64,000 bases of DNA from Candidatus Limnocylindria bacterium (GCA_038227105.1 JBBRQB010000002.1:7983-71982), one strand, 5' to 3'. Shown: positions 6,781 through 36,899, numbered from the stretch's first letter. Translations and numbers: made by a program. Notes: generated from the letters alone by a model not told the origin.

Positions 6781-6781
6781 G

Positions 6782-9181: not shown

Positions 9182-9303
9182 GGGAGGCGCAGTGGGGAAC
9201 GTCATCCAGAGCACGTAGCGGGCGTGCCGGCGTGTATCGAGCGGCAGGTCCGCTCGGCGCAGGCTCCCTTCAACACACACGCGGAGAAAAAGGAGCAACG
9301 GCG

Positions 9304-10278: not shown

Positions 10279-10307
10279 ACCAGCGCGCACCCTCCACGTC
10301 CGCGGAA

Positions 10308-10340
10308 GCGGCCCCCTCACCGGGGCCGCTTTCGTTTGCT
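10308..10340. terminator. Intrinsic terminator hairpin between convergent genes
   Basis: GCGGCCCC-ctcacc-GGGGCCGC followed by tttcgtttgct. Sits between the repeat-protein stop (10278) and the CRP-gene stop (10342). Confidence 0.7.
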
Positions 10341-10341
10341 C

Positions 10342-12282: not shown

Positions 12283-12302
12283 GAGCTGCCTCCGAGCGTA
12301 TA

Positions 12303-13658: not shown

Positions 13659-13744
13659 CCGCCAGCGCCTCGCGGGTCCACTGGGGCATCAACCTGCCGG
13701 CACAGCACACCACCTGGCCCGAGCTCCGGGACACCGCGCTCCTC

Positions 13745-18363: not shown

Positions 18364-18375
18364 GAGGCGCTGAGT

Positions 18376-18807: not shown

Positions 18808-18836
18808 CGCGCCACGCTATCAGCGACACTTCGGAC

Positions 18837-19592: not shown

Positions 19593-19765
19593 CAGTACCG
19601 TTCCCTCAGCGTTCACCTCTCGCGCGCCGATCCACACGAGGCGTCGATATGGGCTCAGCGTTTCATCGAACGAGCGGACAGCGGACAGTTGCACGCCGCT
19701 CGCCCCTCGTTGTCACTGACTGGAGACTTCCCCTCGACCCACCGCTGACTCGATAGTGCGAAGGC

Positions 19766-20725
19766 ATGGGAAGGGTCGCGCGCGCGACGCTGGTCGCGCT
19801 GCTTTCGCTCGCCGCGCTCGCGCAACCGCTCGCCATCAGGGCTGCTGCGGACACGGTCGCATACCCGGGCATGGCCTGGCTGCCTGCCGCGACTGGCAAC
19901 TACGACGTCGGCCGTCGCGGTAGCCCGGTCAGCTTCATCGTGATCCACGACACCGAGATCAACTACGTGTCCACGCTGCGGGCGTTCCAGAATCCGGCCT
20001 CGCGGCGGAGCGCGCACTACGTGATCAGCGGCAACGGCGCGGTGACGCAGATGGTCCCGGAGTCCGATACCGCCTGGCACGCGGGCAACTACGCCTACAA
20101 CCTGCGGTCCATCGGTATCGAGCACGAGCTCGATCGGGTGACCAACCCGTTCTTCACCGAGGCCGAGTACCAGGCGTCGGCCGCACTGGTCTGCGCGATC
20201 GCGTCGCGCTACGGGATCCAGATCGACCGGGCCCACATCTTCGGCCACAGCGAAGTCCCGCTCGCCACGCATACCGACCCCGGACCGACGTGGAACTGGC
20301 CGCACTACATGTGGCTGTTGTCCCAGTGCGCGGATCCGCACAGCATGCTGTCGAGCTTCCACTCCGCGTTCGCTGGACAGTCGGTGCCTGACGCCATCGC
20401 CGCGGGCACGGTCGGGAACGTGACGCTCACGATCCGGAACACGGGCACGCGAGCGTGGGTGCGCGGCACTGCGACCGAGGCGCGGCTGGGGATCCCGCGC
20501 GACGATCGGGTCTACGCGACCGCGGTGACACCCGCGGTCTGGCTCATGCCGACGCGGCCCGCGGCCCAGACCGAGGCGGTCGTGCCGCCCGGCAGTGTCG
20601 CCACGTTCACGTTCCCGGTCGGCGGGTCGCGCGCCGGCGTCTACCGGATCCCGCTGCGCCCCGTGATCGATGGTCTCCTCTGGCTCGAAGACCAGGGCAT
20701 GTTCGTCGATGTGACCGTCCGCTAG
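19766..20725 (+). CDS. Secreted N-acetylmuramoyl-L-alanine amidase (Amidase_2/PGRP fold) with C-terminal extra domain
   Basis: ORF track 319 aa: signal peptide MGRVARATLVALLSLAALAQPLAIRAAAD, then FIVIHDTE...HYVISGNGAVTQMVPESDTAWHAGN...IFGHSE (zinc amidase motifs). GAAGG precedes the ATG. Confidence 0.85.
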   Translation: MGRVARATLVALLSLAALAQPLAIRAAADTVAYPGMAWLPAATGNYDVGRRGSPVSFIVIHDTEINYVSTLRAFQNPASRRSAHYVISGNGAVTQMVPESDTAWHAGNYAYNLRSIGIEHELDRVTNPFFTEAEYQASAALVCAIASRYGIQIDRAHIFGHSEVPLATHTDPGPTWNWPHYMWLLSQCADPHSMLSSFHSAFAGQSVPDAIAAGTVGNVTLTIRNTGTRAWVRGTATEARLGIPRDDRVYATAVTPAVWLMPTRPAAQTEAVVPPGSVATFTFPVGGSRAGVYRIPLRPVIDGLLWLEDQGMFVDVTVR

Positions 20726-20731
20726 ATACCA

Positions 20732-20763
20732 GGAGACCCCGACCATCGTCAGCCGGGGTCTCC
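20732..20763. terminator. Hairpin between convergent genes
   Basis: GGAGACCCC-gaccatcgtcagcc-GGGGTCTCC, directly after the amidase TAG (20723-20725) and before the zinc-ribbon gene stop (20790). Weak T-tract. Confidence 0.5.
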
Positions 20764-20789
20764 TCGTCGTTCGTGGGGGTCGGACGGCT

Positions 20790-24541: not shown

Positions 24542-25363
24542 TTGCCTGAACGCCCGCTCGTCCTCGCGACGATCCTCGCGCACCCGGACGACGAGACGTT
24601 CGGTGTCGGCGGCACTCTCATCAGATACACCGACGCCGGCATCCTGTGTCACAGCCTCTCCCTGACCCGCGGCGAGGCCGGCCAGAGCGGGGTCGCCGGC
24701 GCCCCGCCGATCGTGCCGGAGCGCCTGGGCCAGATCCGCGCGGCCGAGCTCGCGGAGTCCGGCCGGCGCATGGGCATCGCGTCGACGACCGCATTCACGT
24801 ATCCCGATGGCAAGCTCGCGGACGCGCCGGCCGATGACGTCATCCGCGACATCGTCCGCTGGCTCCGCTCGGCGCGTCCGGATGTCGTCATCACCTGGGG
24901 GCCGGACGGCGGCTATGGGCATTCGGATCACATCGCGGCCGGGGAGCTGGCCCTGCGCGCGATCGCGCTCGCCGGTGTTGCACGGCACGAGCCTGAGCTG
25001 GGGGAGCACGTCCACGTGCGGCGCGGCTACCGGATGGTCGCAGCCGCCGAGCTGTTCGACCGTCTGCGCGAGCTCACTCCCGACTTCGCGGCGTACATGG
25101 ATACGCTGCCGGTCAAACCGATGCGCTGGGAGCGGGCGACCCTCGGCGCCGCGATCGACATCCGTGCTGTCGCCGATCGGAAGTGGCACGCGATGCTCGC
25201 GCACGCCACACAGCAGCAGGACCTCGATCGCTTCGCGGGCCTGCGCGATCAGATCGATTTCATCGGGAGCGAGGAGACGTTCATCCGGGCATTCCCGGAT
25301 CCCGGTGGTCCGCCGCTCGAGACCGACCTCTTTGCCGCGTTGCGGGAGCCGGCTACGCCGTAA
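24542..25363 (+). CDS. PIG-L/LmbE-family deacetylase (MshB/Mca-like)
   Basis: ORF track frame 23930..25363, trimmed to TTG 24542. (M)PERPLVLATILAHPDDETFGVGGTL...VITWGPDGGYGHSDH (LmbE zinc motifs HPDDE / HxDH). Confidence 0.75.
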   Translation: MPERPLVLATILAHPDDETFGVGGTLIRYTDAGILCHSLSLTRGEAGQSGVAGAPPIVPERLGQIRAAELAESGRRMGIASTTAFTYPDGKLADAPADDVIRDIVRWLRSARPDVVITWGPDGGYGHSDHIAAGELALRAIALAGVARHEPELGEHVHVRRGYRMVAAAELFDRLRELTPDFAAYMDTLPVKPMRWERATLGAAIDIRAVADRKWHAMLAHATQQQDLDRFAGLRDQIDFIGSEETFIRAFPDPGGPPLETDLFAALREPATP

Positions 25364-26051
25364 CGACCGCCAGGGGATGCATGAGCGCGTCGGCGACCGC
25401 ATGGACCTGATTGGCCGACGCGACCCAGCGCGGCGAGCGGTCCCTGATCTCGTGCGCGAGCGCGCTGATGCCGCACACGACCGGCACGGTCGAGCTCGCG
25501 CAGTCGTTACCCGACCCGCGCTCGAGCAGCACGTACGCATCGACGGTCGTCCGGATGTGCCCGCCGCCTGAGATGTCGCTGCGCACGCGCGCAGCATGAT
25601 CACGTGCGCGTCGCGATGGCGACACCGCGAGGTGATGCATCCCCTGCGGCTCGACGCGGTGCCAGCCGTCGCGGTAGCAACCGAAGTGCGCGTCCTCGCT
25701 GAGCGGTTCGATCACGAAGATGCCGGACGGTCCGACGACGACGAGCGGGACGACATCGGATCCGTCGTGCGGGGTGTACTCGGTCAGCACGACGTACTCG
25801 GGGCCGAGCTCGTGCATCAGTCCGCCCGCGACCCGCTCAGCGAGCTGCCCGCCGCTTCGCGCGCCGAACGCGCGCGCACACTCGCGGATGGCGAGGATCA
25901 GCGGCGGGATCATGAGCACAGCGCTGTACGGTCCGGCCAGCTCGTTCGCCACGGCAGCAGTGCCGAGCGAGAGCGCCAGCCAGAAGCACGCGGCGCGCAG
26001 ATTGCGGCGCCAGCGCACGGGTCGTGTCGCCCTGGAAGCAAGGATCGCCAC
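25353..26051 (-). CDS. NERD (nuclease-related domain) protein with N-terminal TM helices
   Basis: ORF track 232 aa: two hydrophobic helices (LRAACFWLALSLGTAAVA, VLMIPPLILAI), then ...YVVLTEYTPHDGSDVVPLVVVGPSGIFVIE..., a typical NERD core. Confidence 0.6.
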   Translation of the reverse strand: MAILASRATRPVRWRRNLRAACFWLALSLGTAAVANELAGPYSAVLMIPPLILAIRECARAFGARSGGQLAERVAGGLMHELGPEYVVLTEYTPHDGSDVVPLVVVGPSGIFVIEPLSEDAHFGCYRDGWHRVEPQGMHHLAVSPSRRARDHAARVRSDISGGGHIRTTVDAYVLLERGSGNDCASSTVPVVCGISALAHEIRDRSPRWVASANQVHAVADALMHPLAVVTA

Positions 26052-26170: not shown

Positions 26171-27202
26171 ATGACCCTCCGCTCCGAGATCGCCGAGCAG
26201 CCTGCCGTCATCCAGCGGCTCCTCGAGGCCGGCTGGCCCGAGGCCCGGACGCTGTCCCGGCCGCTCGCGGCGGCGGAGCACCTGACGATCGCCGCCCGCG
26301 GCTCGTCCGACAACGCGGCCACCTACGGGAAGTACCTCTTCGAGAGCCTCGCCGGCATCGTCACGGCGCTCGCGGCGCCGTCGCTCGTGACGCGCTACCG
26401 CACGCCGCCGAGCTTCGCTCGGGGTGCCGTGATCGGGATCTCGCAATCCGGCGCGGCCCCCGACGTGGCGGCGGTCGTCGCCGAGGCGCGGGCGGTACGC
26501 GCGCCCACGATCGCCATCACCAACAGCGCGCGGAGCCTCCTCGCGCGCACCGCGCAGGAGACGTTCCTCCTGCGCGCGGGCGTCGAGCGTTCGATCGCCG
26601 CCACGAAGACGTACACGGCGACATGCGTCGCGCTCGCGCTCCTCGCGGCGAATGCCGCGGAGTCGCGCGGCCGCAGCGCCCTGTCGCTCGCGGGACTCGT
26701 TGACAGCGTGACCGAGGCCGAGGCGATGGAGCGGGACGCCGACCGCATCGCGCGCAAGATCGGGCGCGCCCGCACGATCGTCGTGCTCGGGCGCGGCTAC
26801 GAGTACGCGACCGCGCTCGAAGCGGCGTTGAAGGTGAAGGAGCTCGCCGGCGTGTGGGCCGAGCCATACTCGAGCGCGGACTTCGCGCACGGTCCGATCG
26901 CGCTGCTCGAGCCCGGGATCCCGGTCGTCCTCTTCGCGGCGCGTGGCGCCGCGAAGCACGAGGCACGCGCGATGGCACGGACGCTGAGCGGAAGGGGCGC
27001 GAAGGTCTACGCGGTGACGAACGATGCGGGGGTCGCCGAGCTGGCCGACGATGCGGTGCTGCTGCGCTCGCCGCTGTCGGAGGCGCTGACCCCGATCAGC
27101 TTCGCCGTCGTGGCGCAGCTCGTCGCGCTGTCGCTCGCGCGCCGGCGCGGCCGCGACGTGGAGCGCCCGCGCGGGCTTTCGAAGGTGACCCGGACGCGCT
27201 AG
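26171..27202 (+). CDS. Tandem SIS-domain sugar-phosphate isomerase/deglycase (GlmS C-terminal / AgaS / FrlB-like)
   Basis: ORF track 343 aa: HLTIAARGSSDNAATYGKYLFE...GISQSGAAPD (SIS 1)...IVVLGRGYEYATALEAALKVKEL...ADFAHGP (SIS 2). C-terminus DVERPRGLSKVTRTR resembles the GlmS end. Confidence 0.8.
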   Translation: MTLRSEIAEQPAVIQRLLEAGWPEARTLSRPLAAAEHLTIAARGSSDNAATYGKYLFESLAGIVTALAAPSLVTRYRTPPSFARGAVIGISQSGAAPDVAAVVAEARAVRAPTIAITNSARSLLARTAQETFLLRAGVERSIAATKTYTATCVALALLAANAAESRGRSALSLAGLVDSVTEAEAMERDADRIARKIGRARTIVVLGRGYEYATALEAALKVKELAGVWAEPYSSADFAHGPIALLEPGIPVVLFAARGAAKHEARAMARTLSGRGAKVYAVTNDAGVAELADDAVLLRSPLSEALTPISFAVVAQLVALSLARRRGRDVERPRGLSKVTRTR

Positions 27203-27548
27203 CGCGCGCCTTCGTTTTCCGCACCGGTTTGGTCGCGTCCTTGGATGACGTGCGCGCGGCGGCGGCTTTGCCGCCGCCGCGCGAAGCCCCTTCGACGACG
27301 AAGTCGACCCGGAGCTCGTAGCCGTAGACCGTCGCAAGACGGGCCAGCGAGCGGAGTGACGGCAGGTAGCGGGGATCTTCCATGCGGCGCAGCTGCGTTT
27401 GTGAGGTCCCGAGCTTGCGCGCGGCGGCACGCTCCGAGAGCCCGGCCGAGCGCCGGAGCTCGCTCACCGAGCGCGCGACGGCGCTCGCGAGTGGATCGGA
27501 CGGCACCTGCACCGTCGCCTGGGCTGCGTCGCGCTGTGTGTCCCGCAC
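27096..27548 (-). CDS. XRE-family HTH regulator with Lys/Ala/Arg-rich C-terminal tail
   Basis: ORF track 150 aa: LRRSAGLSERAAARKLGTSQTQLRRMEDPRYLPSLRSLARLATVYGYEL (HTH_XRE) then GGGKAAAARTSSKDATKPVRKTKARASASGSPSKARAGAPRRGRAG... The tail is antisense to the last ~107 bp of the SIS gene. Confidence 0.55.
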   Translation of the reverse strand: MRDTQRDAAQATVQVPSDPLASAVARSVSELRRSAGLSERAAARKLGTSQTQLRRMEDPRYLPSLRSLARLATVYGYELRVDFVVEGASRGGGKAAAARTSSKDATKPVRKTKARASASGSPSKARAGAPRRGRAGARATARRAAPRRRS

Positions 27549-27620
27549 CCGTAGATGGTATCGGCCAGCGGATGCACTGCGTACATAGGACGAACGTACT
27601 GTGGACGACGTTCGGAGTCG

Positions 27621-28559
27621 TTACCGATCCGCTTCCGCCGCGAACGCGTCGATCACGTCGCGCTTGTCCGGGTCGTAGGCGAACAGGATGACGCCCTCAC
27701 AGCCGGCGTCCCGCGCCGCGCGCACCTGCTCGCGCACCAGATCGCGTTTTCCGGCGTACGCCATCAACCCGCCCCACATCGCGGTCGCCGGCGCGCTGTC
27801 TCGTGCGGCGCCAAGGAGCCGGCGCACCTCGGCGGTATCGGTCCGGTACGCCATCGGGCAGACCAGGTCGATGAGCCGTTCGGCCGCCCAGTCCGGCCAG
27901 CGCTGGAGCACGCGGTCCCGGGCCACCGGCGGATCGGGGAAGACCGCGGCCGAGATCACGATGCCGGGCCGGGCGGCGCGCACGCGTCGCGTCGTCTCGC
28001 GCACGAGCTCCGTGATCGCGGCGTGATCGCCGGGCGACGCCGCGTACGTCACCTGCGGGTAGCGGATGTAGTCGTGATGGAAGCCCTCGACGGGATAGCG
28101 CGTCACGATGTCCTCGAACACCGCGATCGTGTGGGCCCGCGCCGCTGCGTTCGTCGGGTCGATGTAGATGCCCTCCCAGTCCGAGCCGCCTGCGGGATCG
28201 AGGTACGTCACGCCGTCCGGCCGGAGCAGCCAGTCCGGATGCGCGTTGACGATGTGGCGACGAGAGCGTGGCAGCGCCTTTTCGGGGCTGGACCAGACGA
28301 AGGTGCCGTTCGCCCAGGCGTGGATCCGCACGCCGACGACCGCGCCGCCGCGCACGAGGTGCGCGAGTGGATCGAGCGTCGGATCCGCGAGGCCCTCCGC
28401 CCGCGGCTCGAGCTCGCTCGTGTAATAAGAGTCGCCGCGGCCGCGCACCTGCACGACGAGGTCGCGGATGTTCCAGCCGACGCTCTGGGCGAGCAGGTCT
28501 TCGATCGCCTCCCGCGTCGTGATGCGGTCGCGCACCACCCAGAGCGCCTTCGTCAGCAT
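27621..28559 (-). CDS. Glycoside-hydrolase-like family 10 (GHL10/DUF4015) TIM-barrel protein
   Basis: ORF track 312 aa: ...GVRIHAWANGTFVWSS...EGFHHDYIRYP...DLVCPMAY..., a GHL10-type pattern. Confidence 0.6.
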   Translation of the reverse strand: MLTKALWVVRDRITTREAIEDLLAQSVGWNIRDLVVQVRGRGDSYYTSELEPRAEGLADPTLDPLAHLVRGGAVVGVRIHAWANGTFVWSSPEKALPRSRRHIVNAHPDWLLRPDGVTYLDPAGGSDWEGIYIDPTNAAARAHTIAVFEDIVTRYPVEGFHHDYIRYPQVTYAASPGDHAAITELVRETTRRVRAARPGIVISAAVFPDPPVARDRVLQRWPDWAAERLIDLVCPMAYRTDTAEVRRLLGAARDSAPATAMWGGLMAYAGKRDLVREQVRAARDAGCEGVILFAYDPDKRDVIDAFAAEADR

Positions 28560-29323
28560 CAGGCGAGGTCCCGATACGTCGCGAGCCGGATGCCGTTCCG
28601 CTCGATGGCCGCGCGGATCTTCCGATCAGTGAGGGTCGCGAGCTCCGTCACGCGCAGCGCTGCATACGCCGACGAGCGCTCGAGCTCCGCGTCCGGCTCG
28701 CCGGGGTGACAACCGAGCTCGGTCACGCCATCGCCGATGCCGGCGAGGATGCGCTCGAGCGTCGCGACGTCGACGTGCCCGTCGTGCTGGAAGTCGCGGC
28801 GGTAGTGGTCGACGGTCGTCACGCCCGCCGCGCGAAGCCGGTCGCGCTGCGCGTCGTCGTGCGGCCGCACCGCGGCGCCGGTCTCCTGCGCGAGCGAAGC
28901 GATCGCCCACTCAAGGTCGGGCTCGTCGTGGAGCCAGTGATGCGTGTCGAGGTGTGTCGGCGCCCGACCGATCAGCTCGGCCGCGCGGGCGTGTTGCGCG
29001 CGGTACTCGATGAGCGCCTCGTCGCGCTGTGCGCGGCCCGTCCCCAGGAACGCGGCGGGCAGTCGCGGGAACGAGCCGTCGGGCTCGACGAGCGAGGGGA
29101 TGCGCTTCGGGTCCGTGACCGGTCGCGCGTAGGTCAGCGTCAGGTGCACGCCGACATCGAGCGAAGGTGTCGCGCGCGCGATGCGCGCGGCATCCTCGGC
29201 CGCGGGTGCGCTGACCATGATCGTCGTCGCGGTGACGATCCCGTCGCGGTGCGCGCGCAGCACGCCGGTGTTGATGCCCGTTGCGCGGCCGAAGTCATCG
29301 GCGTTGACGATGAGACGTTTCAT
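28559..29323 (-). CDS. ChbG/YdjC-family carbohydrate deacetylase
   Basis: ORF track frame 28559..29641, trimmed to ATG 29323. MKRLIVNADDFGRATGINTGVLRAHRDGIVTATTIMV...LDVGVHLTLT...THLDTHHWLH (YdjC metal-binding motifs). Confidence 0.8.
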   Translation of the reverse strand: MKRLIVNADDFGRATGINTGVLRAHRDGIVTATTIMVSAPAAEDAARIARATPSLDVGVHLTLTYARPVTDPKRIPSLVEPDGSFPRLPAAFLGTGRAQRDEALIEYRAQHARAAELIGRAPTHLDTHHWLHDEPDLEWAIASLAQETGAAVRPHDDAQRDRLRAAGVTTVDHYRRDFQHDGHVDVATLERILAGIGDGVTELGCHPGEPDAELERSSAYAALRVTELATLTDRKIRAAIERNGIRLATYRDLA

Positions 29324-30129
29324 GGCGCCTCGATCGCGCGCCTGACGCTCCACCCCGCGGACTCGAGCTTCGCGGTCGCGGCGTGCTCGTCGAGCCGGAG
29401 CTCGTCCTGGACCATCCGGACCGCGCGAGCGCGCAGCTTCGCGTTCGTCGGTCGCAGATCGATCATCAGATCGCCCTTGGTCCGGCCGGACCGGATCATC
29501 GCCGCGGTCGACAGCATGTTGAGCACGAGCTTCGTCGCGGTGCCCGCCTTGAGCCGGCTCGATCCGGCGAGCACCTCGGGACCGACATCGACGACGATCG
29601 GGATCTCGGTGACGGTCACGAGCGGCGATCCGGCGACGCACGTGATGCCCACTGTCGTCGCGCCAACGGCACCCGCGGCCCGCACCGCCGCGACGACGTA
29701 GCGTGCCGATCCGCCGGCGGAGATGCCCACGACGACGTCACCTGGTCTGGTCACGCGGACGACGTCGCGTTCGCCGGACAGCGGATCGTCCTCCGCGCCC
29801 TCGACGGACGTACGCAGAGCTTCGTCACCTCCCGCGATGATCCCCTCCACGAGGTCGGGCTCGACCCCGAACGTCGGTGGGGCCTCGCTCGCGTCCAGCA
29901 CGCCGAGCCGGCCGCTGGTCCCGGCGCCGACGTAGCGCAGCCGGCCGCCACGTGTGAACGCGGCAGCGATCGCGTCGGCCGCGCGCTCGATCGCGGGAAG
30001 CGCGAGGCGGACCGCGGCCGCGACGGTCGCGTCCTCGTCGTTCATGAGCTCGAGGATCTCGCGGCTCGACATCGTCGCGAGCATCGAGGCCCTCGGGTTG
30101 CGCGACTCGGTGCGCGGGACGCCGGTCAT
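29320..30129 (-). CDS. murQ: N-acetylmuramic acid 6-phosphate etherase
   Basis: ORF track 269 aa: TESRNPRASMLATMSSREILELMNDED...YVGAGTSGRLGVLDASE...SRLKAGTATKLVLNM follows the MurQ consensus throughout. Confidence 0.9.
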   Translation of the reverse strand: MTGVPRTESRNPRASMLATMSSREILELMNDEDATVAAAVRLALPAIERAADAIAAAFTRGGRLRYVGAGTSGRLGVLDASEAPPTFGVEPDLVEGIIAGGDEALRTSVEGAEDDPLSGERDVVRVTRPGDVVVGISAGGSARYVVAAVRAAGAVGATTVGITCVAGSPLVTVTEIPIVVDVGPEVLAGSSRLKAGTATKLVLNMLSTAAMIRSGRTKGDLMIDLRPTNAKLRARAVRMVQDELRLDEHAATAKLESAGWSVRRAIEAP

Positions 30130-31034
30130 GCAGCGCCCCAGGCGAGCTTCATCGCGAGCCGGGCGGCGCCCATCGCCGGCTCCTCGCCGACGGGCTCGAC
30201 CGCGGCGCGTGGGAGGACGCCGAGGAGCTCGAGCCGCACCGCCTTCTCGAGCGGCCGGACATTCTCGAATGCGCCACCGGCGAGGTACACCGGCCCGCCC
30301 TCGAGCAGGAGCGCACGCGCGACGGTGGCGGCCATCTCCGCGAGGTGCCGCGCGCCACGCTGGACGATGTTCACCGCGATCGCGTCGCCCTCGGCGTAGG
30401 CGCGGGCGACGGCGCGCGTGGCGGCCTGGATCGCGGGCGGCGGGTGCGGCTTTCCGTAGAGCAGCGGCAGCACGCCGTTGAAGTCCGCGGCGCCGAGATC
30501 CTCGAACAGGTGGCGCGTGATCCGCGTCGGCGAGCCCCGGCCGTCGTGGTCGTACGAGGCAGCGCGAAGGCCCTCGGCACCGAGCCAGAACGCGGAGCCC
30601 TCGTCACCGACGAGGTAGCCCCACCCACCGCAGCGGTCCTCCAGGCCCTGGTCATTGCGTCCGTAGGCGATGGACCCGGTGCCGGAGATGAGCACCACGC
30701 CGCATCCGGTCGGGTTGCCCGCGTAGAGCGCAGCGAGCGCGTCGTGGGTCACGTCCACCGCGACCTCCGGCCCAACGAGCCCGACGAGGATCGAGCGGCC
30801 CTTCGCGCGGTCCGCGTCCCGTTCGCCGCCGGAGCAGGAGAGGACGATCGCGTCGGGCTCGCGTCCCGCGAGCGCCTCCTGGAGCGCTGCCGCGATCGAG
30901 CCCTGCGGGTCCGGGCTCGACAGCAGGTTGCCGCCGCCGCCCGCGCCGCGACCGACGATCTCGCCGGCGCGCGTCACGGCGAAGGCGCGCGTCTTCGTGC
31001 CGCCTGCGTCGATACCAACGACGAGATCCTTCAT
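30126..31034 (-). CDS. BadF/BadG/BcrA/BcrD-type ATPase, probable N-acetylglucosamine (or MurNAc) kinase
   Basis: ORF track 302 aa: MKDLVVGIDAGGTKTRAFAV...LISGTGSIAYG...GGWGYLVGDEGSAFWLG (sugar-kinase/ASKHA motifs). Confidence 0.75.
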   Translation of the reverse strand: MKDLVVGIDAGGTKTRAFAVTRAGEIVGRGAGGGGNLLSSPDPQGSIAAALQEALAGREPDAIVLSCSGGERDADRAKGRSILVGLVGPEVAVDVTHDALAALYAGNPTGCGVVLISGTGSIAYGRNDQGLEDRCGGWGYLVGDEGSAFWLGAEGLRAASYDHDGRGSPTRITRHLFEDLGAADFNGVLPLLYGKPHPPPAIQAATRAVARAYAEGDAIAVNIVQRGARHLAEMAATVARALLLEGGPVYLAGGAFENVRPLEKAVRLELLGVLPRAAVEPVGEEPAMGAARLAMKLAWGAA

Positions 31035-31052
31035 GCCGCGAAGTATGGACGG

Positions 31053-32144
31053 CTAGGGCGCGTGGACGGATCCGGCGGAGACAGCGCGCGACGCGCCGGT
31101 GCACCGCGGCAGCGTGTTCGGCTCGCCGCGCAGCCGGTAGGCACCGAGGATCGCGAACGCGACCGCCTCGCGTGCCTCGGCCGGGATGCCGAGCTCGTCG
31201 GTCAGCCGGATGCGGAGCTTCGTGCGCGCGGCGAGGCGCTCGACGAGCGTCACATTGCGTGCGCCGCCACCGGCGATCACGAGCTCGCGCCACGGGCCTC
31301 CGTCGAGCGCGCGCGCGATGGATTCGACCGTGATCGCGGTCGCCGTGGCGATCGCGTCGTCGAGCGATCCGCCCGCGGCCTTCACGTCGGCGTGGAGCTG
31401 CTGCGCGAACGGCGCGCCGAACTCCTCGCGCCCGGTGGACTTTGGACCTGTGCGCGCGAAGTACGGATGGCCGAGCGCGCTCGCGAGCACCGCGGCGTTC
31501 GGCGTGCCGCGCCTCGCGGCCGCGCCGTCGCGATCGAGCTCGTTGCCGCCCTTGCGCGCGAGCTGGTCGATGACCATGTTCCCGGGGCCCGTGTCGAACG
31601 CGACGACGTCCGAGGCTGCGGCGGTCGGCAGCAGCGTGACGTTCGCGATGCCGCCGATGTTGAGGATCGCGCGCGGCGTGCCGTCGGCGAAGAGGAGGTG
31701 ATCGGCGAACGGGACGAGCGGCGCTCCCTGGCCGCCGAGCGCGACGTCGGCGCTGCGGAAATCGTCGATCGCCGGCACGCCCGTCTGCAGGGCGACGCGC
31801 GAGGCGTCGCCGATCTGCAGCGTCGCGTGCTCGGCGGGGAAGTGCGCGATGGTCTGCCCGTGGACCGCGATGGCTGTCGGCGTGCGCCCGATCAGGGCGA
31901 TGAGCTCACGCGCGATGGAGGCGTACGCGTCGCCGAGCGCGGCGTGGAGCGTCGCGATGTCATGCGCGGGCAGGGGCGCGCCCGAGCCCGCGGCGATGAT
32001 GCGGTAGCGCAGCGCGTCGGGATGGTCGCGCGCGACGTGGGCGAGCAGCCGGATCGCCGGCCGGGGCTGCTGATCACCGATCTCGATCGCCGCGGCGTCC
32101 ATGCCGTCGGCGGAGGTGCCGGACATGATGCCGATCGCGATCAC
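31053..32144 (-). CDS. anmK: Anhydro-N-acetylmuramic acid kinase
   Basis: ORF track frame 31053..32780, trimmed to GTG 32144 (overlaps the upstream gene's TGA as GTGA; alternative ATG 32126). VIAIGIMSGTSADGMDAAAIEI...FDTGPGNMVIDQLA...RELVIAGGGARN (AnmK motifs). Confidence 0.85.
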   Translation of the reverse strand: MIAIGIMSGTSADGMDAAAIEIGDQQPRPAIRLLAHVARDHPDALRYRIIAAGSGAPLPAHDIATLHAALGDAYASIARELIALIGRTPTAIAVHGQTIAHFPAEHATLQIGDASRVALQTGVPAIDDFRSADVALGGQGAPLVPFADHLLFADGTPRAILNIGGIANVTLLPTAAASDVVAFDTGPGNMVIDQLARKGGNELDRDGAAARRGTPNAAVLASALGHPYFARTGPKSTGREEFGAPFAQQLHADVKAAGGSLDDAIATATAITVESIARALDGGPWRELVIAGGGARNVTLVERLAARTKLRIRLTDELGIPAEAREAVAFAILGAYRLRGEPNTLPRCTGASRAVSAGSVHAP

Positions 32145-33106
32145 GATGCGGCCGCCTGGTGGACCGCGATGCGGAACTTGTACATCGCGTCGTCGTTCGC
32201 GCGGCCGAAGTACACCCGGTTCGTCAGCAGCACGACCGTGAGGTCCGTCGTCGGGTCGATCCACAGCGACGTACCGGTGAAACCGGTGTGGCCGTAGCTG
32301 TCGAGGCTCCAGCTGTCGCTCGTCATCGGTCCGTTCGGCGCGCGGAGCGCCAGCCCGAGACCGCGCCGCACGTTGTCGCCGCGCACGTGCTCCGCGCGTG
32401 ATCGCGCGGCGAGCGCGTTCCCGATGACCGCGCCGTCGCGATACACGCGCGCGATCGCCGCGACGTCGGCCGCCGTGCCGAAGAGACCGGCGTGGCCGGC
32501 GATCCCGCCCATCGCGTGGGCATTCTCGTCGTGCACGCTTCCGCGGATGCGCCCGCGGCCGAGCGTCACGTCGAGCTCCGTCGCGACGCAGGCGAGCGGG
32601 TCGCGCGGACGGTAGGCGAGCGTCTCGGCCTCGAGCGGGCCGATCACGCGCTCCGTCACGAGCGTGTCGAACGGGGCGCCGCCGGCCCGGGCGAGCCCGG
32701 CGGTCAGCATGATGAAGCCGAGATCGCTGTACCTGTACGTTCCGAGGTCCTGCGCGAGCGGCTCCTGCGCGGCACGCCACGCCGCCTCGTCGATCGAGCG
32801 GACCTCCTCATGCAGGGGGAGCCACCATCTGAGGCCTGCCGTGTGGGTCAGGACGTGGAACAGCGTGACGTCGTCCTTGCGCCCGCCGTGGAAATCGGGC
32901 ACGAGCTCGCGGAAAGGCGTCTCGAGCGTGAGCTCGCGCTCGCGCACCAGCGACAGCAGCAGCGCCGTCGTCGAGAGCTTCGTCAGCGACGCGAGATCGA
33001 AGATCGCGGCGGGCGTGCACGGCGCATCAGCCCCCGCGGTGTCGTCCGGGCAGAGGGTCCCGGCGGCGTACGTCTCGGCGTTGCCCTTCCGCTCGACGCG
33101 CACCAC
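32141..33106 (-). CDS. Beta-lactamase-fold serine hydrolase (class C / esterase-like)
   Basis: ORF track 321 aa: AAIFDLASLTKLSTTALLL (SxxK)...YSDLGFIML (YxN-like)...GHTGFTGTSLWIDP (KTG-like HTG). Confidence 0.75.
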   Translation of the reverse strand: MVRVERKGNAETYAAGTLCPDDTAGADAPCTPAAIFDLASLTKLSTTALLLSLVRERELTLETPFRELVPDFHGGRKDDVTLFHVLTHTAGLRWWLPLHEEVRSIDEAAWRAAQEPLAQDLGTYRYSDLGFIMLTAGLARAGGAPFDTLVTERVIGPLEAETLAYRPRDPLACVATELDVTLGRGRIRGSVHDENAHAMGGIAGHAGLFGTAADVAAIARVYRDGAVIGNALAARSRAEHVRGDNVRRGLGLALRAPNGPMTSDSWSLDSYGHTGFTGTSLWIDPTTDLTVVLLTNRVYFGRANDDAMYKFRIAVHQAAAS

Positions 33107-33165
33107 GCACGCGGTGAAGAGCGTGCCCGCGGCCGCGTCGACGACCGCCTTGACCGTGTCGAGGC

Positions 33166-34860
33166 TCAGAGGTTCTTCATCCCGTCACCGATACGGTAGA
33201 CACCTGGCACCTCGACCGGCAGCGTGCCCGACGGCGCGCGCGCTCCGGACAGGACATCGGCGAGCGCGCGAAGGGTCGGCTCGCGGCCCGTGTACGCGCA
33301 GACGTAGCCGCTGACGCCCGGAGCGCTCAGGATGTCGTACGGCGAGCGAAGCGACACGAGCACCGTCGGCCTCACAGCCTGGAGCGCCTTGGCGAGTGCC
33401 GCCTGCTGCGGATACGAGAAGAGGTCCGCCGACCCGAGTACGGCGACGTCGGCGGCGCGTGCGCTCGCGACGGCGCGGTCGATGTCCGCCTGCGTCGGCG
33501 CGAGCGTGATCGTCTGCGCGGTGACGTTCGGCAGGCGCTGCGCGAGCACCGCGCCGAGCGTCGGCTGATCGGTCACGAGTGCGATGTCGGGGTTCTGCGG
33601 CGACGCGACGAAGATGCGGCCGCGGAGCGGCAGGCCACCGGCGCGGAGCACCGTGATCGACAGGCGCGCGAGCTCGTCGGCAGTCGCGCGGTCCGCGTCG
33701 CCGCCTGCGGTGCCCGTCGACGCGGCAGCGTCGAGGATGCCGAACTGCTCCTTGAGCGCGAGGATGCGCGCGACCGACTGGCCCGACCGCGCGAGCAGCG
33801 GGGCATCGGCCGTGATGCCCCGGGTCAGCTTGTCGTGCGCGTCGGTCTGCGCCGACTCGTCGAAGCGGAACAGCAGGAAGTCCGCGCCCGCAACGAACGC
33901 GTCATAGCCCGCCTGTGCCTCGCTGCGCGTCTGGGTCAGCGCGCCCATCTCGAGATCGTCGGTCACGAGCAGTCCGGTGAAGCCGAGCTCGGTCCGAACG
34001 AGGTCGGTCATCACGCGCCGTGACAGCGTCACCGGCAGGTCCGGCGCCGGATCGAGTGCCGGGATCCGGATGTGCGCGCTCATGATCGCGGGCGTTCCCG
34101 CGGCGATCGCCGCTTTGAACGGGACGAGCTCCACGGCATCGAGCCGCGCGCGAGTCACGTCGAGAAGCGGCAGACCGGTGTGCGAGTCGGTGGTGGTCGC
34201 ACCGTGACCGGGGAAGTGCTTCACGCACGACAGCAGCTTCGCGTCGATGAACGCCTGCGTCGCGACGCGGACGAGCGCGGCGACGCGCTGCGGATCCGAC
34301 CCGAACGAGCGGTTGAGGATGATCGGATTGCGCGGCTCGTTGTTCACGTCGGCGTCGGGCGCGAGCTCGAAGTTCACGCCGAGCGCGCGGAGGTCCCGCG
34401 CCGTGATGGCGGCGGCCTTGCGCACGCTGTCCGCCGGATCCGGCGTGGCTGCGAGGGCCATGTTGCCCGGCAGTACCGTGGCGCCCCTGCTGATGCGCAC
34501 CACCGCGCCGCCTTCCTGGTCGATCGAGAAGAACAACGGGACGGTCTTCGCCTCGGCCGCGATGCGCGAGAGCTCCGCGACGAGCGTCTTGAGCTTCGCC
34601 GCGTCGCCGTCGAAGTTCTCCGAATACAGGATGAACCCGCCGACGCCGCGGCCACGGATCATCGCCTCGAGCGCAGGTGTGATCTTGGTGCCGTGGAATG
34701 CCACGCTCATCATCTGGCCCGCGCGCGCGGCGATGGACATCGATGCGAGGAGCATGTCTACCCGCGATGCGTTGATGGTGCCGAGCGGCATGGTGCGGTC
34801 CGGTGCGCACGCCGCGACAGCCGCCCCGGCTGCTGACAGGAGAAGCCGGCGCCGGTTCAC
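33166..34860 (-). CDS. nagZ: Glycoside hydrolase family 3 beta-N-acetylhexosaminidase (NagZ-like), exported lipoprotein type
   Basis: ORF track 564 aa: MNRRRLLLSAAGAAVAAC (Tat/lipobox-like), then FSIDQEGGAVVRI...KHFPGHGATTTDSHTGLP...LLVTDDLEMGAL (GH3 N-domain motifs). Confidence 0.85.
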   Translation of the reverse strand: MNRRRLLLSAAGAAVAACAPDRTMPLGTINASRVDMLLASMSIAARAGQMMSVAFHGTKITPALEAMIRGRGVGGFILYSENFDGDAAKLKTLVAELSRIAAEAKTVPLFFSIDQEGGAVVRISRGATVLPGNMALAATPDPADSVRKAAAITARDLRALGVNFELAPDADVNNEPRNPIILNRSFGSDPQRVAALVRVATQAFIDAKLLSCVKHFPGHGATTTDSHTGLPLLDVTRARLDAVELVPFKAAIAAGTPAIMSAHIRIPALDPAPDLPVTLSRRVMTDLVRTELGFTGLLVTDDLEMGALTQTRSEAQAGYDAFVAGADFLLFRFDESAQTDAHDKLTRGITADAPLLARSGQSVARILALKEQFGILDAAASTGTAGGDADRATADELARLSITVLRAGGLPLRGRIFVASPQNPDIALVTDQPTLGAVLAQRLPNVTAQTITLAPTQADIDRAVASARAADVAVLGSADLFSYPQQAALAKALQAVRPTVLVSLRSPYDILSAPGVSGYVCAYTGREPTLRALADVLSGARAPSGTLPVEVPGVYRIGDGMKNL

Positions 34861-36335
34861 GAGAGGCGGACCGGCAGCCTGCCCCGCGCTTCGGCGCGCC
34901 CACTGAGGACATCGGCGAGCGCCTCGAGCGACACCGGCACGTCGCCGTACGTGAGCAGCGCCGGCACGGTGGGCACGAGCGAGGCGTCGTACGGGCTGCG
35001 CAGCGCGCAGAGGACGCCGCCGTCACGCAGGAGCGACCGCGCACGGTCAGCCTGCGCCGCATCGAAGGACGCGCTCGAGGTGCACACGACGAGCGGCCCG
35101 TCGCCCTGCGGCGCCGAGCCGTCGGTCGAGAACGCGACGCGCGGGCCGAGCCGCTCGCGGAGCAGGTGCTCGAGCCGAGCCTCCGGATCGGCGAGCTCCT
35201 CGACCGGCGATCGCCGCTGGGCGGCGAAGGTCACGACCCGCAGCGGTCCGCCCAGTGGCGGGAGCGCCGGTCCGGCGGCGGTGATCGCGGCGCGCGCGAT
35301 CTCCAGCGCCAGCGCGCGACCCGGCCCGTCGTCGAACGGGCCTACCGGGACTGCGATGCCGTAGCGATCGCGGAACCCGGCCGCGCGGCCGATCGCTTCG
35401 GCCAACCGCGCCGGCGGCACGCCGAGGGCCAGCTGCTCCTGGGCATCGAGCTGCCGCCCGAGCCCCGTCGTCACCATGACCGCGTCGATGCCGGCATTCA
35501 CGGCGCGCGCGAGGACACGCTCGGGCGTCTCGACCTGCGTGAGCCCGGACATGTCCAGCGCGTCGGTGATCGCGAGCCCACCGAATCCGAGCTCGCCGCG
35601 CAGCAGGTCGCGAACGATCCGCGGCGACAGCGTCGCGATGCTGTCCTCGTCGAGCGCGGGGTAGCGGATGTGCGCGGACATGACGCTCGCCGCGCCCGCC
35701 CCGACGGCGGCGCGGAACGGGACAAGCTCGCGCGCCTCCAGCGCGGCGCGGTCGGCGCGCACGTCCACGGTCGTGTGGTGCGTGTCATAGGAGGAGGCGC
35801 CGTGGCCCGGGAAATGTTTCGCCGAGGTCGCGACGCCGGCACCCTCCGACCCGCGGACCCACGCGGCCACGAAACGCGCGACCTGTTGCGGGTCGTCGCC
35901 GAAAGATCGTGTGCCGATGACCGGATTGCGCGGCTCGACGTTGATGTCGCAGACCGGCGCGTGATTCACCCCGATGCCGTCCGCGCGCAGTCCAAGCGCG
36001 ACCGCGCGCGCGGCGCGCTCGGCGTTGAGCGGATCGCCGCTCGCGCCGATGGCCATCGCGCTCGGGAACACCGCGCCGTAGCCGATCCGGACGACGCTGC
36101 CGCCCTCCTGATCCACGCCGACCGGGACCGGCGGAAGCCCGCCGCGCCGCGCCGCGGCAGCTGCCTCGCGCAGCATCGCGCGGACCTGATCGCGTGATCT
36201 GACGTTGCCGCGATACGCGAAGAGCACGAGCCCGCCGATCTGGCCGCGCCCGATCGCCTCGAGGAGCTCCCCGGGGACCGCGGGACCATCGAATCCGGCC
36301 CAGACCAGTGCGCCCGAGGACAGCCTCGCTCCCAC
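34857..36335 (-). CDS. nagZ: Glycoside hydrolase family 3 beta-N-acetylhexosaminidase (second NagZ paralog, no signal peptide)
   Basis: ORF track 492 aa: VGVDQEGGSVVRI...KHFPGHGASSYDTHHTTVDV...LAITDALDMSGL. Confidence 0.85.
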   Translation of the reverse strand: MGARLSSGALVWAGFDGPAVPGELLEAIGRGQIGGLVLFAYRGNVRSRDQVRAMLREAAAAARRGGLPPVPVGVDQEGGSVVRIGYGAVFPSAMAIGASGDPLNAERAARAVALGLRADGIGVNHAPVCDINVEPRNPVIGTRSFGDDPQQVARFVAAWVRGSEGAGVATSAKHFPGHGASSYDTHHTTVDVRADRAALEARELVPFRAAVGAGAASVMSAHIRYPALDEDSIATLSPRIVRDLLRGELGFGGLAITDALDMSGLTQVETPERVLARAVNAGIDAVMVTTGLGRQLDAQEQLALGVPPARLAEAIGRAAGFRDRYGIAVPVGPFDDGPGRALALEIARAAITAAGPALPPLGGPLRVVTFAAQRRSPVEELADPEARLEHLLRERLGPRVAFSTDGSAPQGDGPLVVCTSSASFDAAQADRARSLLRDGGVLCALRSPYDASLVPTVPALLTYGDVPVSLEALADVLSGRAEARGRLPVRLS

Positions 36336-36344
36336 CTGTCGAGC

Positions 36345-36899
36345 CTAGGTGGTCATCGCCTCCGCCGCCGTCGCGACGCGATCGCATGCGCTGCGGAGCG
36401 CGTCGATCTCCTGGTCGTCGAACTTCTCACCGAAGATCGTGCCGATGGCGCGGACGACGTTGGGCGTCGCGCGCTTGAATGCATGCCGGCCTTCGGGGGT
36501 CAGCACGATCAGCTGGCCGCGCCGGTCCGTCTCGCAGGCGTGCCGTTCGATGTAGCCGCGCTCGACCAGCCGGTCGATCAAGCGGGTGAGGCCGCTCTTC
36601 GTGAGGAGGACGCGTTCGGCAAGGTCGGTCGGCCGGATGCCTTCACGGGGCGCGCCGGCAATGTTCACCAGAACGTCGTACTCAGAGTGGCAGACCCCGG
36701 TCGCGGCCAGGGCGACCTCCATCGCGGCGGCCGATGCCGAACCGGCGCGCAGGAACGCCCGCCAGGCCCGGAGCTCCGGATCGGAGGCCCGGCGACCCCG
36801 TTCGTCCTTCTCCTGCTTCTGGGTGGGGGAGGAATAAGTTGTATCTGCAACATGTTCCCGCACAACAAGAGCATACGCTGGTCCCAAGGGGCCGAGCAA
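36345..36899 (-). CDS. MarR-family transcriptional regulator
   Basis: ORF track 184 aa: SEYDVLVNIAGAPREGIRPTDLAERVLLTKSGLTRLIDRLVERGYIER (winged HTH). The TTG start at 36899 runs through a low-GC promoter-like stretch shared with yceI, so the start is probably internal (e.g. GTG ~36863). Confidence 0.75.
   Translation of the reverse strand: MLGPLGPAYALVVREHVADTTYSSPTQKQEKDERGRRASDPELRAWRAFLRAGSASAAAMEVALAATGVCHSEYDVLVNIAGAPREGIRPTDLAERVLLTKSGLTRLIDRLVERGYIERHACETDRRGQLIVLTPEGRHAFKRATPNVVRAIGTIFGEKFDDQEIDALRSACDRVATAAEAMTT

Follow-up and report, generated by a model that had tools for sequence, protein, structure and literature searches.

A probable peptidoglycan-sugar salvage operon conserved across the uncultured class Candidatus Limnocylindria

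Introduction

What pathway, if any, is encoded by a compact string of amino-sugar genes in a member of an uncultured bacterial class? The question is raised by a 64,000-nucleotide (nt) stretch of DNA (hereafter, the window) from a Candidatus Limnocylindria bacterium (GCA_038227105.1, JBBRQB010000002.1:7983-71982), in which genes for two NagZ-like glycosidases, a beta-lactamase-fold hydrolase, AnmK, a sugar kinase, MurQ, a YdjC/ChbG-family deacetylase, a GHL10 glycosidase-like protein and a tandem-SIS protein are packed between positions 26,171 and 36,899. An earlier note, made by a model from the sequence alone, had read this region as a near-complete locus for the recycling of N-acetylmuramic acid (MurNAc) and anhydro-MurNAc. 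Limnocylindria (formerly Ellin6529) are an abundant, uncultured soil lineage, and peptidoglycan and amino sugars make up a large pool of soil organic nitrogen and carbon.

The analysis described here indicates that the locus is probably a peptidoglycan-sugar salvage operon, conserved across this class of the Chloroflexota. Family-level identities, operon structure and co-conservation all support the MurNAc/anhydro-MurNAc salvage assignment of the earlier note. Pathways of this type are known, and direct precedents exist for six of the eight enzymes; the YdjC deacetylase and the signal-less GHL10 protein have no described role in peptidoglycan-sugar salvage. In the literature searched, no description was found of this combination of genes, of its packing into a single operon by an uncultured class of the Chloroflexota, of a signal-less GHL10 protein, or of YdjC in the place of NagA.

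Organization of the locus

The G+C content of the window is about 70% and raw lists of open reading frames (ORFs) are noisy; coding frames were picked by third-position G+C and then by Pfam and NCBIfam matches. The string runs along the minus strand from 36899 to 27096, while the tandem-SIS gene lies on the opposite strand and converges on the XRE gene. The features are as follows, with protein lengths in amino acids (aa).

36345-36899, minus strand: MarR-family regulator (Pfam MarR_2 PF12802, E 6.6e-15)
34857-36335, minus strand: NagZ-B (GH3B), 492 aa (PF00933, E 5.9e-67)
33166-34860, minus strand: NagZ-A (GH3A), 564 aa, two domains (PF00933, E 1.3e-71, and PF01915, GH3_C)
32141-33169, minus strand: beta-lactamase-fold serine hydrolase (Bla), 342 aa from a CTG start (PF00144, E 2.5e-43)
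31053-32144, minus strand: AnmK, 363 aa (PF03702, E 7e-91, covering residues 3-361 of 363)
30126-31034, minus strand: BadF/BcrAD-family sugar kinase, 302 aa (PF01869, E 8e-32)
29320-30129, minus strand: MurQ, MurNAc-6-phosphate etherase, 269 aa (NF003915, 335.4 bits against a cutoff of 168)
28559-29323, minus strand: YdjC/ChbG-family metal-dependent sugar N-deacetylase, 254 aa (PF04794, E 3.7e-58)
27621-28559, minus strand: GHL10 TIM-barrel glycosidase-like protein, 312 aa (PF02638, 67.5 bits against a cutoff of 27.9)
27096-27548, minus strand: XRE-family helix-turn-helix protein (HTH_31 and HTH_3)
26171-27202, plus strand: tandem-SIS phosphosugar isomerase/deaminase, 343 aa (two SIS stretches)
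25353-26051, minus strand: conserved neighbour, about 221-232 aa, with a hydrophobic N-terminus, divergent from the SIS gene
24542-25363, plus strand: PIG-L/LmbE-family GlcNAc-type de-N-acetylase, start TTG 24542 (PF02585, E 1.1e-30)

All eleven genes named by the earlier note were recovered where it had placed them, through ORFs, Pfam and NCBIfam, including the MarR and XRE regulators at the two flanks (MarR_2 and HTH_31/HTH_3 matches). The start of the MarR gene is TTG 36899 or, in the public gene call, GTG 36863.

The genes of the string are linked by start/stop overlaps, which were counted at seven of the eight enzyme-gene junctions. These are GTGA between the GH3B and GH3A genes, CTGA between the GH3A gene and bla (with the CTG start at 33169), GTGA between bla and anmK, and ATGA at both the kinase/murQ and murQ/ydjC junctions; the last three are the overlaps that had been claimed for chbG-murQ-kinase and anmK-hydrolase. 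Gaps are found 5' of the kinase gene (18 nt) and between marR and the GH3B gene (9 nt). At the ydjC/GHL10 junction the sequence TGATG gives a 1-nt overlap with the ydjC stop, so the GHL10 gene is the last cistron of the string and more than a neighbour. It had been described as adjacent, which is right as to position and falls short as to linkage, since it is the final gene of the same minus-strand string. The tandem-SIS gene does lie next to the string, as had been said, but it is convergent, on the opposite strand. The XRE gene follows 72 nt 3' of the GHL10 gene on the same strand. No protein of the string contains a membrane-spanning segment. Scans for consensus promoters and terminators gave nothing beyond one terminator-like hairpin at the end of the SIS gene (27195-27208), and Rfam gave nothing relevant. 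The XRE protein has a basic, low-complexity C-terminal tail whose coding sequence shares ~107 nt with the 3' end of the convergent SIS gene (27096-27202).

Conservation in Limnocylindria and beyond

A collection scan with an alignment of GHL10 homologues yielded 80 loci, of which 61 are of Limnocylindria type (GHL10 identity 52-95%) and 19 come from Acidobacteriota and one Eisenbacteria metagenome-assembled genome (MAG; identity 31-37%). Window proteins were mapped onto these loci by tblastn. The alignment-based scan reached Acidobacteria, unlike single-protein homologue searches; the best 120 matches for GHL10 and for YdjC are Limnocylindria-type orthologues (identity at least 71% and at least 74%, respectively), and the closest named homologues come from Chloroflexota MAGs.

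Full gene order was counted where 8 kb or more of sequence lies upstream of the GHL10 gene, which holds for 32 Limnocylindria species-level genomes. The order GH3B-Bla-AnmK-kinase-MurQ-YdjC-GHL10 is the same in 30 of the 32 and is kept down to about 50-70% protein identity; GH3A is also present in 25 of those 30 loci and missing from 5. YdjC is encoded upstream of GHL10 in every locus scored (54/54), either adjacent or, in 17, with one URO-D-like gene between, and the SIS gene lies downstream in 48 of 49. This strong co-conservation answers the doubt, raised in the earlier note, that the genes might not be conserved together. The XRE gene is found in 54 of the 61 related loci. The MarR gene, together with a divergent YceI gene, is present in just 11 of the 61, which makes the MarR regulator subclade-specific. 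Two contigs assembled from public sequencing runs carry the locus in identical form.

The gene inserted between ydjC and the GHL10 gene in 17 Limnocylindria loci encodes a URO-D/MtaA-like protein (324 aa, PF01208, E 1.2e-25) with no obvious amino-sugar role; these loci include L019-L023, L027, L029, L031, L036, L039, L045, L048, L051, L054 and L060 (e.g., L022:9028-10002). A Limnocylindria-type locus (70-81% identity) was also seen on contigs filed as Saccharimonadales, Udaeobacter, Myxococcota, Bathyarchaeia and Acidiferrales MAGs (L014, L018, L034, L036, L042), which are most likely mis-binned.

Paired NagZ enzymes

The two GH3 proteins share 37% identity over their full length and are 30-32% identical to E. 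coli NagZ (30% for GH3B). A NagZ-specific Asp-His motif, KH(F/I)PG(H/L)Gx4D(S/T)H, is known from work on B. subtilis NagZ, and the signature KHFPGHGx4D(S/T)H is present in both paralogues, at residue 173 of GH3B (KHFPGHGASSYDTH) and residue 214 of GH3A. The best NCBIfam family for GH3B is beta-N-acetylhexosaminidase, at 168.8 bits and under the cutoff of 207; a miss of this single-domain NagZ equivalog cutoff is expected for two-domain forms. The relatives of GH3A in the PDB include a two-domain GH3 N-acetylglucosaminidase (6k5j, E 4e-89) and the B. subtilis lipoprotein YbbD/NagZ (3bmx, E 1.6e-57).

The paralogues differ in their N-termini. GH3A carries a lipoprotein signal, VNRRRLLLSAAGAAVAAC, with a Tat-like (twin-arginine translocation) RRxFL motif and an A-A-C lipobox, and the motif and the lipobox Cys are kept in essentially all GH3A orthologues whose N-terminus is on the contig. 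A public gene call (L001) starts at a later ATG and gives a 541-aa protein, implying a cytoplasmic GH3A; this start was rejected because the 23 codons before the ATG encode the conserved Tat/lipobox signal V/M-N/K-R-R-x-F/L-L...A-A-C. On the strength of the conserved twin-arginine motif and lipobox, GH3A is predicted to be an exported lipoprotein starting at GTG 34860. Among GH3A, Bla and GHL10, the lipoprotein signal is conserved on GH3A only. GH3B has no signal peptide and is predicted to be cytoplasmic, so that the earlier pairing of an exported with a cytoplasmic NagZ is upheld.

The beta-lactamase-fold hydrolase

The start of bla needed correction. GTG 33106 was rejected in favor of CTG 33169, as it would drop 21 residues (LSLDTVKAVVDAAAGTLFTAC) that relatives also conserve and that correspond by homology to the fold's first helix in the Acidobacteria homologues. 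Orthologues show GTGA, TTGA or ATGA where the window genome and its subclade have CTGA, which suggests termination-reinitiation coupling that tolerates CTG. With the CTG start, the gene runs from 33169 to 32141, encodes 342 aa and is translationally coupled to the GH3A gene. The protein has no signal peptide, and all orthologues begin directly with the fold's first helix.

The protein has the serine-hydrolase motifs SLTK (residue 61), YSD (147) and HTG (294). In NCBIfam it scores best against PBP4B (NF002968), at 79.5 bits against a cutoff of 385, followed by AmpH, and it is therefore a distant relative of PBP4B and not an orthologue. Identity to E. coli YfeW (PBP4B) is 28% (28-33%; E 2e-24), with a shared VHDEnA...GG(I/V)xGHAGLF block. 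In E. coli, yfeW comes third in the operon murQ-murP-yfeW (PMC5061867). AmiE of B. subtilis, which belongs to PF00144 and to the murR regulon (PMC10653849), is a secreted MurNAc-L-Ala exo-amidase of proven activity, encoded in the murQ operon (PMC8054146; PMC10653849). Since YfeW and AmiE are both found in murQ operons, the beta-lactamase-fold hydrolase appears to be a recurrent partner of MurQ. The window protein has the PF00144 fold, the serine motifs and the murQ linkage of this AmiE/PBP4B group and is most likely a MurNAc-L-Ala (muropeptide) amidase. The earlier suggestion of peptide-stem or D-Ala processing is thus kept for the stem peptide and refined to an amidase of the PBP4B/YfeW-AmiE type, with D-Ala (DD-peptidase) processing left as a rival.

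AnmK, the sugar kinase and MurQ

The identities of AnmK, the BadF-type kinase and MurQ are confirmed by their family matches. AnmK scores 379.7 bits against NCBIfam NF007148, marginally under the cutoff of 387, and is 38% identical to E. coli AnmK (E 1.5e-57). MurQ scores 307 bits against NF009222 (cutoff 255) and 295.4 against TIGR00274, just under the cutoff of 302; it is 48% identical to E. coli MurQ (E 1e-75), with a C-terminus shorter by about 30 residues. The catalytic glutamates of E. coli MurQ, E83 and E114, lie within DASE and VEGAED motifs, and both motifs are aligned in the window protein, at residues 79 and 109.

The substrate of the kinase is less sharply defined by its matches. 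Its sole NCBIfam match is NagK_SO3507, at 98 bits against a cutoff of 370, and a MurNAc/GlcNAc kinase (8zo3, E 5.6e-31) is among its PDB relatives; GlcNAc here is N-acetylglucosamine. The protein is as similar to the broad-range archaeal hexokinase 2e2n and to NagK_SO3507 as it is to MurK. It belongs to PF01869 and is encoded beside murQ, as expected of the MurK type: Tannerella murK is encoded beside murQ, and MurK is in the same Pfam family (PMC5790795). The kinase is proposed to be a MurK/NagK-like MurNAc and/or GlcNAc 6-kinase.

When the locus was mapped onto known routes, counterparts of E. coli MurQ and AnmK were found; no APH-type kinase, nucleotidyltransferase or HAD phosphatase domain, as in the AmgK-MurU-MupP route of Pseudomonas, was found by Pfam among the genes of the window.

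YdjC and the deacetylation step

YdjC is 37% identical to E. coli ChbG (E 2e-43) and scores 192.9 bits against the ChbG equivalog NF002559, not reaching the cutoff of 227. The metal and catalytic residues of K. pneumoniae ChbG are D10, D11, H61, H125 and H206 (PMC9402603). In an alignment with E. coli ChbG, YdjC retains all five active-site residues (D9-D10, H60, H128 and the CHP His), which confirms the ChbG-like deacetylase of the earlier note at the family level. No tblastn match to ChbF or a phosphotransferase system (PTS) homologue was found in the window or in related loci.

E. coli NagA, classical NagB, MurP, MurR and NagC likewise gave no tblastn match, either within the window or across related loci totalling ~1.1 Mb. 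The sole Amidohydro_1 protein in the window (14608-15825) was considered as a NagA candidate and rejected as Xaa-Pro-dipeptidase-like. The GlcNAc cluster of Shewanella, by contrast, includes NagA, which the Limnocylindria locus is without. As the product of MurQ would be useless without a GlcNAc-6-phosphate (GlcNAc-6-P) deacetylase and NagA was not found at the locus, YdjC may be either a NagA replacement or a disaccharide deacetylase. In the second of these two readings, YdjC would deacetylate a disaccharide so that its coupled partner GHL10 could cleave it, as ChbG does for ChbF, and the gene content of L059 and L063 (see below) adds weight to it. The idea of deacetylated amino sugars put forward in the earlier note thus survives as one of two candidate roles of YdjC. 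The proposed substrate of YdjC is speculative and leans somewhat towards doubt. YdjC is not mentioned together with MurQ or AnmK in the literature searched, and a tblastn search of plasmids for YdjC-MurQ linkage in cultured organisms returned, among the matches listed, chb operons or HpnK annotations.

The PIG-L protein is an alternative candidate for the deacetylation step. Its best NCBIfam families, both under their cutoffs, are MshB (95.7 bits) and BshB, and its gene is syntenic in 25 of the 61 loci.

The GHL10 protein

The GHL10 protein belongs to Pfam GHL10 and has a Cwp19-like TIM-barrel fold. C. difficile Cwp19 cleaves the MurNAc-GlcNAc bond, giving lytic transglycosylase products as well as hydrolytic ones at peptide-free MurNAc (PMC6016235), and E. 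coli DigH (YddW) hydrolyses denuded glycan strands (PMC12288456). The proposed active site of Cwp19 comprises an F-D-D-Y motif (Asp196/Tyr197) and Arg132 (PMC5765458). Identity of the window protein to DigH is 22% over 186 residues. In an ungapped alignment with Cwp19, D163 corresponds to Asp195 and Y164 replaces Asp196; a shift of one residue would pair D163-Y164 with Asp196-Tyr197. The motifs H-D-Y-I-R-Y-P and N-G-T-F are nearer to those of an uncharacterized DUF4015 structure (4s1a) than to the F-D-D-Y and N-P-Y-R of DigH and Cwp19. Among the structural neighbours of the GHL10 model, those ranked highest after Cwp19 include the hydrolase domain of PgaB, which acts on partly deacetylated poly-N-acetylglucosamine.

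The protein has no signal or hydrophobic segment (maximum 19-residue Kyte-Doolittle hydropathy 0.98). All Limnocylindria GHL10 orthologues are signal-less and start at the first barrel strand, whereas DigH, Cwp19 and the homologues from Acidobacteria are all exported proteins. Immediately upstream of the GHL10 homologue, 14 Acidobacteria loci carry a fusion gene whose product joins a PBP4B-like beta-lactamase domain to the exo-muramidase NamZ. This linkage offers independent, cross-phylum support for a peptidoglycan role of GHL10. The fusion loci are L064-L075, L081 and L082 (e.g., L073:7322-11161); in L073 the fusion gene looks to be split by a frameshift (7322-8080 and 7914-9815).

The earlier note had called the combination of ChbG, GHL10 and a second SIS enzyme not standard. 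GHL10, as a member of the DigH/Cwp19 family, the SIS protein and the beta-lactamase fold are expected partners in such a locus; the presence of YdjC and the lack of a signal on GHL10 are indeed unusual. The proposed substrate of the GHL10 protein is speculative and a little more doubtful than not.

The tandem-SIS protein

The SIS protein aligns with residues 256-596 of GlmS and has tandem SIS domains and no glutaminase domain. Its NCBIfam matches are all under their cutoffs: the GlmS isomerase domain (236 bits), NagB_SO3506 (180.6 bits, cutoff 430) and GlmD (80 bits). PDB relatives include 3fj1 (E 5.7e-45) and the NagB-II structure 8eol (E 3.5e-36). The protein looks like a glucosamine-6-phosphate (GlcN-6-P) deaminase of the NagB-II type, which would be the standard step after GlcNAc-6-P deacetylation.

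A proposed pathway and its alternatives

How might these proteins work together? Outside the membrane, the Tat-exported lipoprotein NagZ-A would trim terminal GlcNAc from released wall fragments, which would then be imported by a transporter not encoded in the window. In the cytoplasm, NagZ-B would take off GlcNAc and the AmiE/PBP4B-like serine hydrolase would strip the stem peptide from MurNAc or anhydro-MurNAc. The signal-less GHL10 protein could then cut the remaining MurNAc-GlcNAc bonds of peptide-free oligosaccharides, the job that NamZ does outside B. subtilis cells. AnmK would convert anhydro-MurNAc to MurNAc-6-phosphate (MurNAc-6-P), the MurK-like kinase would phosphorylate free MurNAc and/or GlcNAc, and MurQ would convert MurNAc-6-P to GlcNAc-6-P and D-lactate. 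YdjC, the PIG-L protein or an unseen NagA would carry out the deacetylation that is usually the task of NagA, to give GlcN-6-P, which the convergent NagB-II-like SIS enzyme would turn into fructose-6-phosphate; GlcN-6-P may also feed wall synthesis. The analysis shows the family of each protein, the operon structure, the localization signals and the conservation; from family membership and operon precedent, we infer the steps of NagZ-A, NagZ-B, the amidase, AnmK and the kinase, MurQ and the SIS enzyme. In effect, the proposal is the NagZ-AmiE-NamZ logic of B. subtilis moved to the cytoplasm and joined to the AnmK-MurQ branch of E. coli. Its full form, in which dismantling is entirely intracellular and exo-lytic through a cytoplasmic GHL10 N-acetylmuramidase of the H-D-Y-I-R-Y-P type replacing NamZ, with YdjC as NagA replacement or disaccharide deacetylase, is tentative and rather unlikely as a whole. 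The MurNAc/anhydro-MurNAc recycling core of the earlier description stands, but "near-complete" overstates it, as there is no uptake gene in the window and no NagA homologue at the locus.

Several observations weigh against the salvage reading. Two loci, L059 and L063 (e.g., L063:5981-19773), keep GH3B-GH3A-YdjC-GHL10-SIS without Bla, AnmK, the kinase and MurQ, and carry a GH20 hexosaminidase gene and a five-gene Opp/Dpp-type ATP-binding cassette (ABC) transporter with an SBP_bac_5 protein; this gene content implies that the YdjC-GHL10 pair is not strictly bound to MurNAc. Most NCBIfam equivalog cutoffs are missed by the proteins of the string. No transporter or permease domain was found in the window by Pfam, which leaves the uptake step without an encoded permease. 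AmiE is secreted in B. subtilis, whereas the window protein is signal-less. NagA could be encoded elsewhere in the genome, and ChbG, the closest characterized relative of YdjC, acts on a disaccharide and not on GlcNAc-6-P (PMC9402603). In the GHL10 protein the strand-4 motif is H-D-Y-I-R-Y-P, as against F-D-D-Y-F-Y-P in Cwp19 and DigH, and an invariant F87 aligns with the proposed catalytic Arg132 of Cwp19, so the chemistry of this subfamily may differ from that of Cwp19 and DigH.

Some of these points also fit a different account, in which the conserved core (two GH3 proteins, YdjC, GHL10 and SIS) is a general module for GlcNAc oligosaccharides, such as chitooligosaccharides or partly deacetylated glycans, into which MurNAc genes were inserted. 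YdjC would take one acetyl group off an imported disaccharide and GHL10 would hydrolyse the glucosamine-containing product, much as in E. coli ChbG-ChbF or Thermococcales Dac-GlmA. L059 and L063 have just such a core, to which GH20 and the ABC transporter are added, and GH20 genes flank four further loci (L024, L028, L037, L038). The best YdjC matches are chitin disaccharide deacetylases, E. coli chbG adjoins chbF, annotated "monoacetylchitobiose-6-phosphate hydrolase", and PgaB stands among the structural neighbours of the GHL10 model after Cwp19. The translational coupling of YdjC to GHL10, with YdjC upstream at all 54 loci, also counts in favor of this account. However, the MurNAc genes lie inside the string and are themselves translationally coupled in 30 of 32 genomes, the sole characterized GHL10 enzymes act on peptidoglycan, the Acidobacteria homologue is linked to NamZ and a PBP4B-like domain and not to chitinases, and the window has no chitinase or chitin-binding gene. 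We regard such a module as an unlikely explanation of the locus.

A narrower disagreement with the salvage pathway concerns its amidase. The beta-lactamase-fold protein might instead be an esterase or a peptidase that trims stem peptides or D-Ala, with peptide removal by an AmpD/Amidase_2 enzyme encoded elsewhere. PBP4B and AmpH are its best NCBIfam families, the SxxK, YxD and HTG motifs are typical of acyl-serine DD-peptidases, and a secreted Amidase_2 is encoded 11 kb away. Against this stand the proven MurNAc-L-Ala amidase activity of AmiE, itself a PF00144 protein from a murQ operon (PMC8054146; PMC10653849), the fusion of the same fold to NamZ in Acidobacteria, which suits an amidase acting at glycan ends, and the lack of a signal peptide, which puts the wall out of reach. 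The Amidase_2 gene (19766-20725, plus strand; signal peptide present) had been named as the supplier of the muropeptide-cleaving step, which is not borne out. It lies within ~1.2 kb of sequence (19592-20789) that L003, L004, L010 and L016, the four closest relatives compared, do not have at this position, and the gene is in none of the 80 related loci; it was therefore rejected as a pathway member. L003 (92% nucleotide identity) joins 20790 to 19591 with 56 bp between and L010 has ~60 bp there, while L004 and L016 have unrelated sequence; the pattern looks like either a deletion in those relatives or an insertion specific to the strain. A non-amidase role is, all told, quite unlikely. Finally, the genes could be chance neighbours, or brought together by genome compaction, with no single pathway. 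Limnocylindria genomes are small (mean 2.39 Mb; PMC10608941), so unrelated genes might overlap, and consensus scans found no promoter or terminator except the hairpin at the SIS gene end. The retention of gene order to ~50-70% protein identity in 30 of 32 genomes, the start/stop overlaps along the string and the origin of six of the eight enzymes in families already tied to peptidoglycan sugar salvage make this extremely improbable.

Comparison with known systems

One close parallel is the B. subtilis operon murQ-murR-murP-amiE-nagZ-namZ, whose products NagZ, AmiE and NamZ digest peptidoglycan sequentially (PMC8054146). Shared with it (PMC8054146; PMC5061867) are MurQ, a two-domain lipoprotein-type GH3 NagZ, a PF00144 protein in the proposed part of MurNAc-L-Ala amidase and a glycosidase proposed to cleave MurNAc-GlcNAc, as well as the logic by which GlcNAc, peptide and MurNAc are taken off the ends of glycan chains one after another. 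All three B. subtilis hydrolases are secreted, and uptake of MurNAc is through the PTS protein MurP; in Limnocylindria only one NagZ is exported, the amidase-like and glycosidase-like proteins are signal-less, there is no PTS and no RpiR-type MurR, and GHL10 stands in place of NamZ (GH171). AnmK, the MurK-like kinase, a second NagZ and YdjC are extras of the Limnocylindria locus. Neither an RpiR-type MurR nor a cytoplasmic AmpD-type amidase was found in the window.

E. coli recycling (AmpG, NagZ, AmpD, AnmK, MurQ, NagA) is matched by a cytoplasmic NagZ (30-32% identity), AnmK (38%) and MurQ (48%), and the murQ-murP-yfeW operon by the genetic linkage of a YfeW/PBP4B homologue (28-33%) to murQ (PMC5061867). 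The E. coli recycling genes are scattered, whereas those of Limnocylindria lie in one operon, in which the candidates for the AmpD, NagA and NagB steps are the beta-lactamase-fold enzyme, YdjC and the NagB-II-like SIS protein. Tannerella forsythia murT-murK-murQ and the MurK of Clostridium acetobutylicum (PMC5790795) provide a likeness in the BcrAD/BadFG-family kinase and its place beside murQ, which implies a PTS-independent supply of free MurNAc. Tannerella has a MurT-type transporter, and none is present in the Limnocylindria window.

Other parallels are partial. DigH and Cwp19 are exported and have F-D-D-Y and N-P-Y-R motifs (PMC12288456; PMC6016235; PMC5765458), whereas the Limnocylindria GHL10 is signal-less and only 312 aa long. 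In the E. coli chb operon (PMC9402603), a YdjC deacetylase (37% identity) is also encoded beside a glycosidase in an amino-sugar operon; there the partner is the GH4 phospho-glucosidase ChbF and uptake is by PTS, whereas the Limnocylindria partner is GHL10, with no PTS. In Shewanella oneidensis, a BadF-type kinase (NagK, SO3507) and a tandem-SIS protein (NagB-II, SO3506) likewise replace the ROK-type NagK and classical NagB (NF046058, NF046059), and these models are the best or near-best NCBIfam matches of the window proteins, though the scores lie far under the cutoffs (98 vs 370; 180.6 vs 430).

Were the intracellular reading true, the locus would add to the routes of E. coli and Pseudomonas a third variant of MurNAc salvage and would give first functions to a large uncharacterized GHL10/DUF4015-like clade. 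It offers candidates for a non-NagA GlcNAc-6-P (or disaccharide) deacetylase, for an intracellular GHL10 member and for a cytoplasmic AmiE/PBP4B-type amidase, the last of which may help to explain the presence of yfeW in the E. coli murQ operon. That a nine-gene operon has been kept despite small genomes suggests that salvage matters for the lifestyle of these bacteria, whether the wall is their own or that of dead neighbours. Established views are not overturned, and the finding would not surprise a specialist in cell-wall recycling.

Other genes in the window

Beyond the SIS gene, the protein encoded at 25353-26051 has no Pfam or NCBIfam match, and its gene is syntenic in 44 of the 61 loci. 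At one end of the window, positions 2-11013 hold a cyclic-nucleotide and two-component signalling cluster, with a response regulator bearing a cyclase domain, a second response regulator, a Crp-family regulator, a 1812-aa histidine kinase with nine GAF domains (1342-6780) and an M50 peptidase that binds cyclic nucleotides (6533-8965). The region 11344-19592 is F420-related and encodes an F420-0:gamma-glutamyl ligase (18837-19592), three luciferase-like oxidoreductases and a PNPOx-like protein; these genes adjoin those for a proline racemase, a class-III aminotransferase and the Xaa-Pro-dipeptidase-like amidohydrolase. An undecaprenyl-diphosphatase (BacA/UppP) gene at 55889-56728 on the minus strand is consistent with an organism that builds peptidoglycan.

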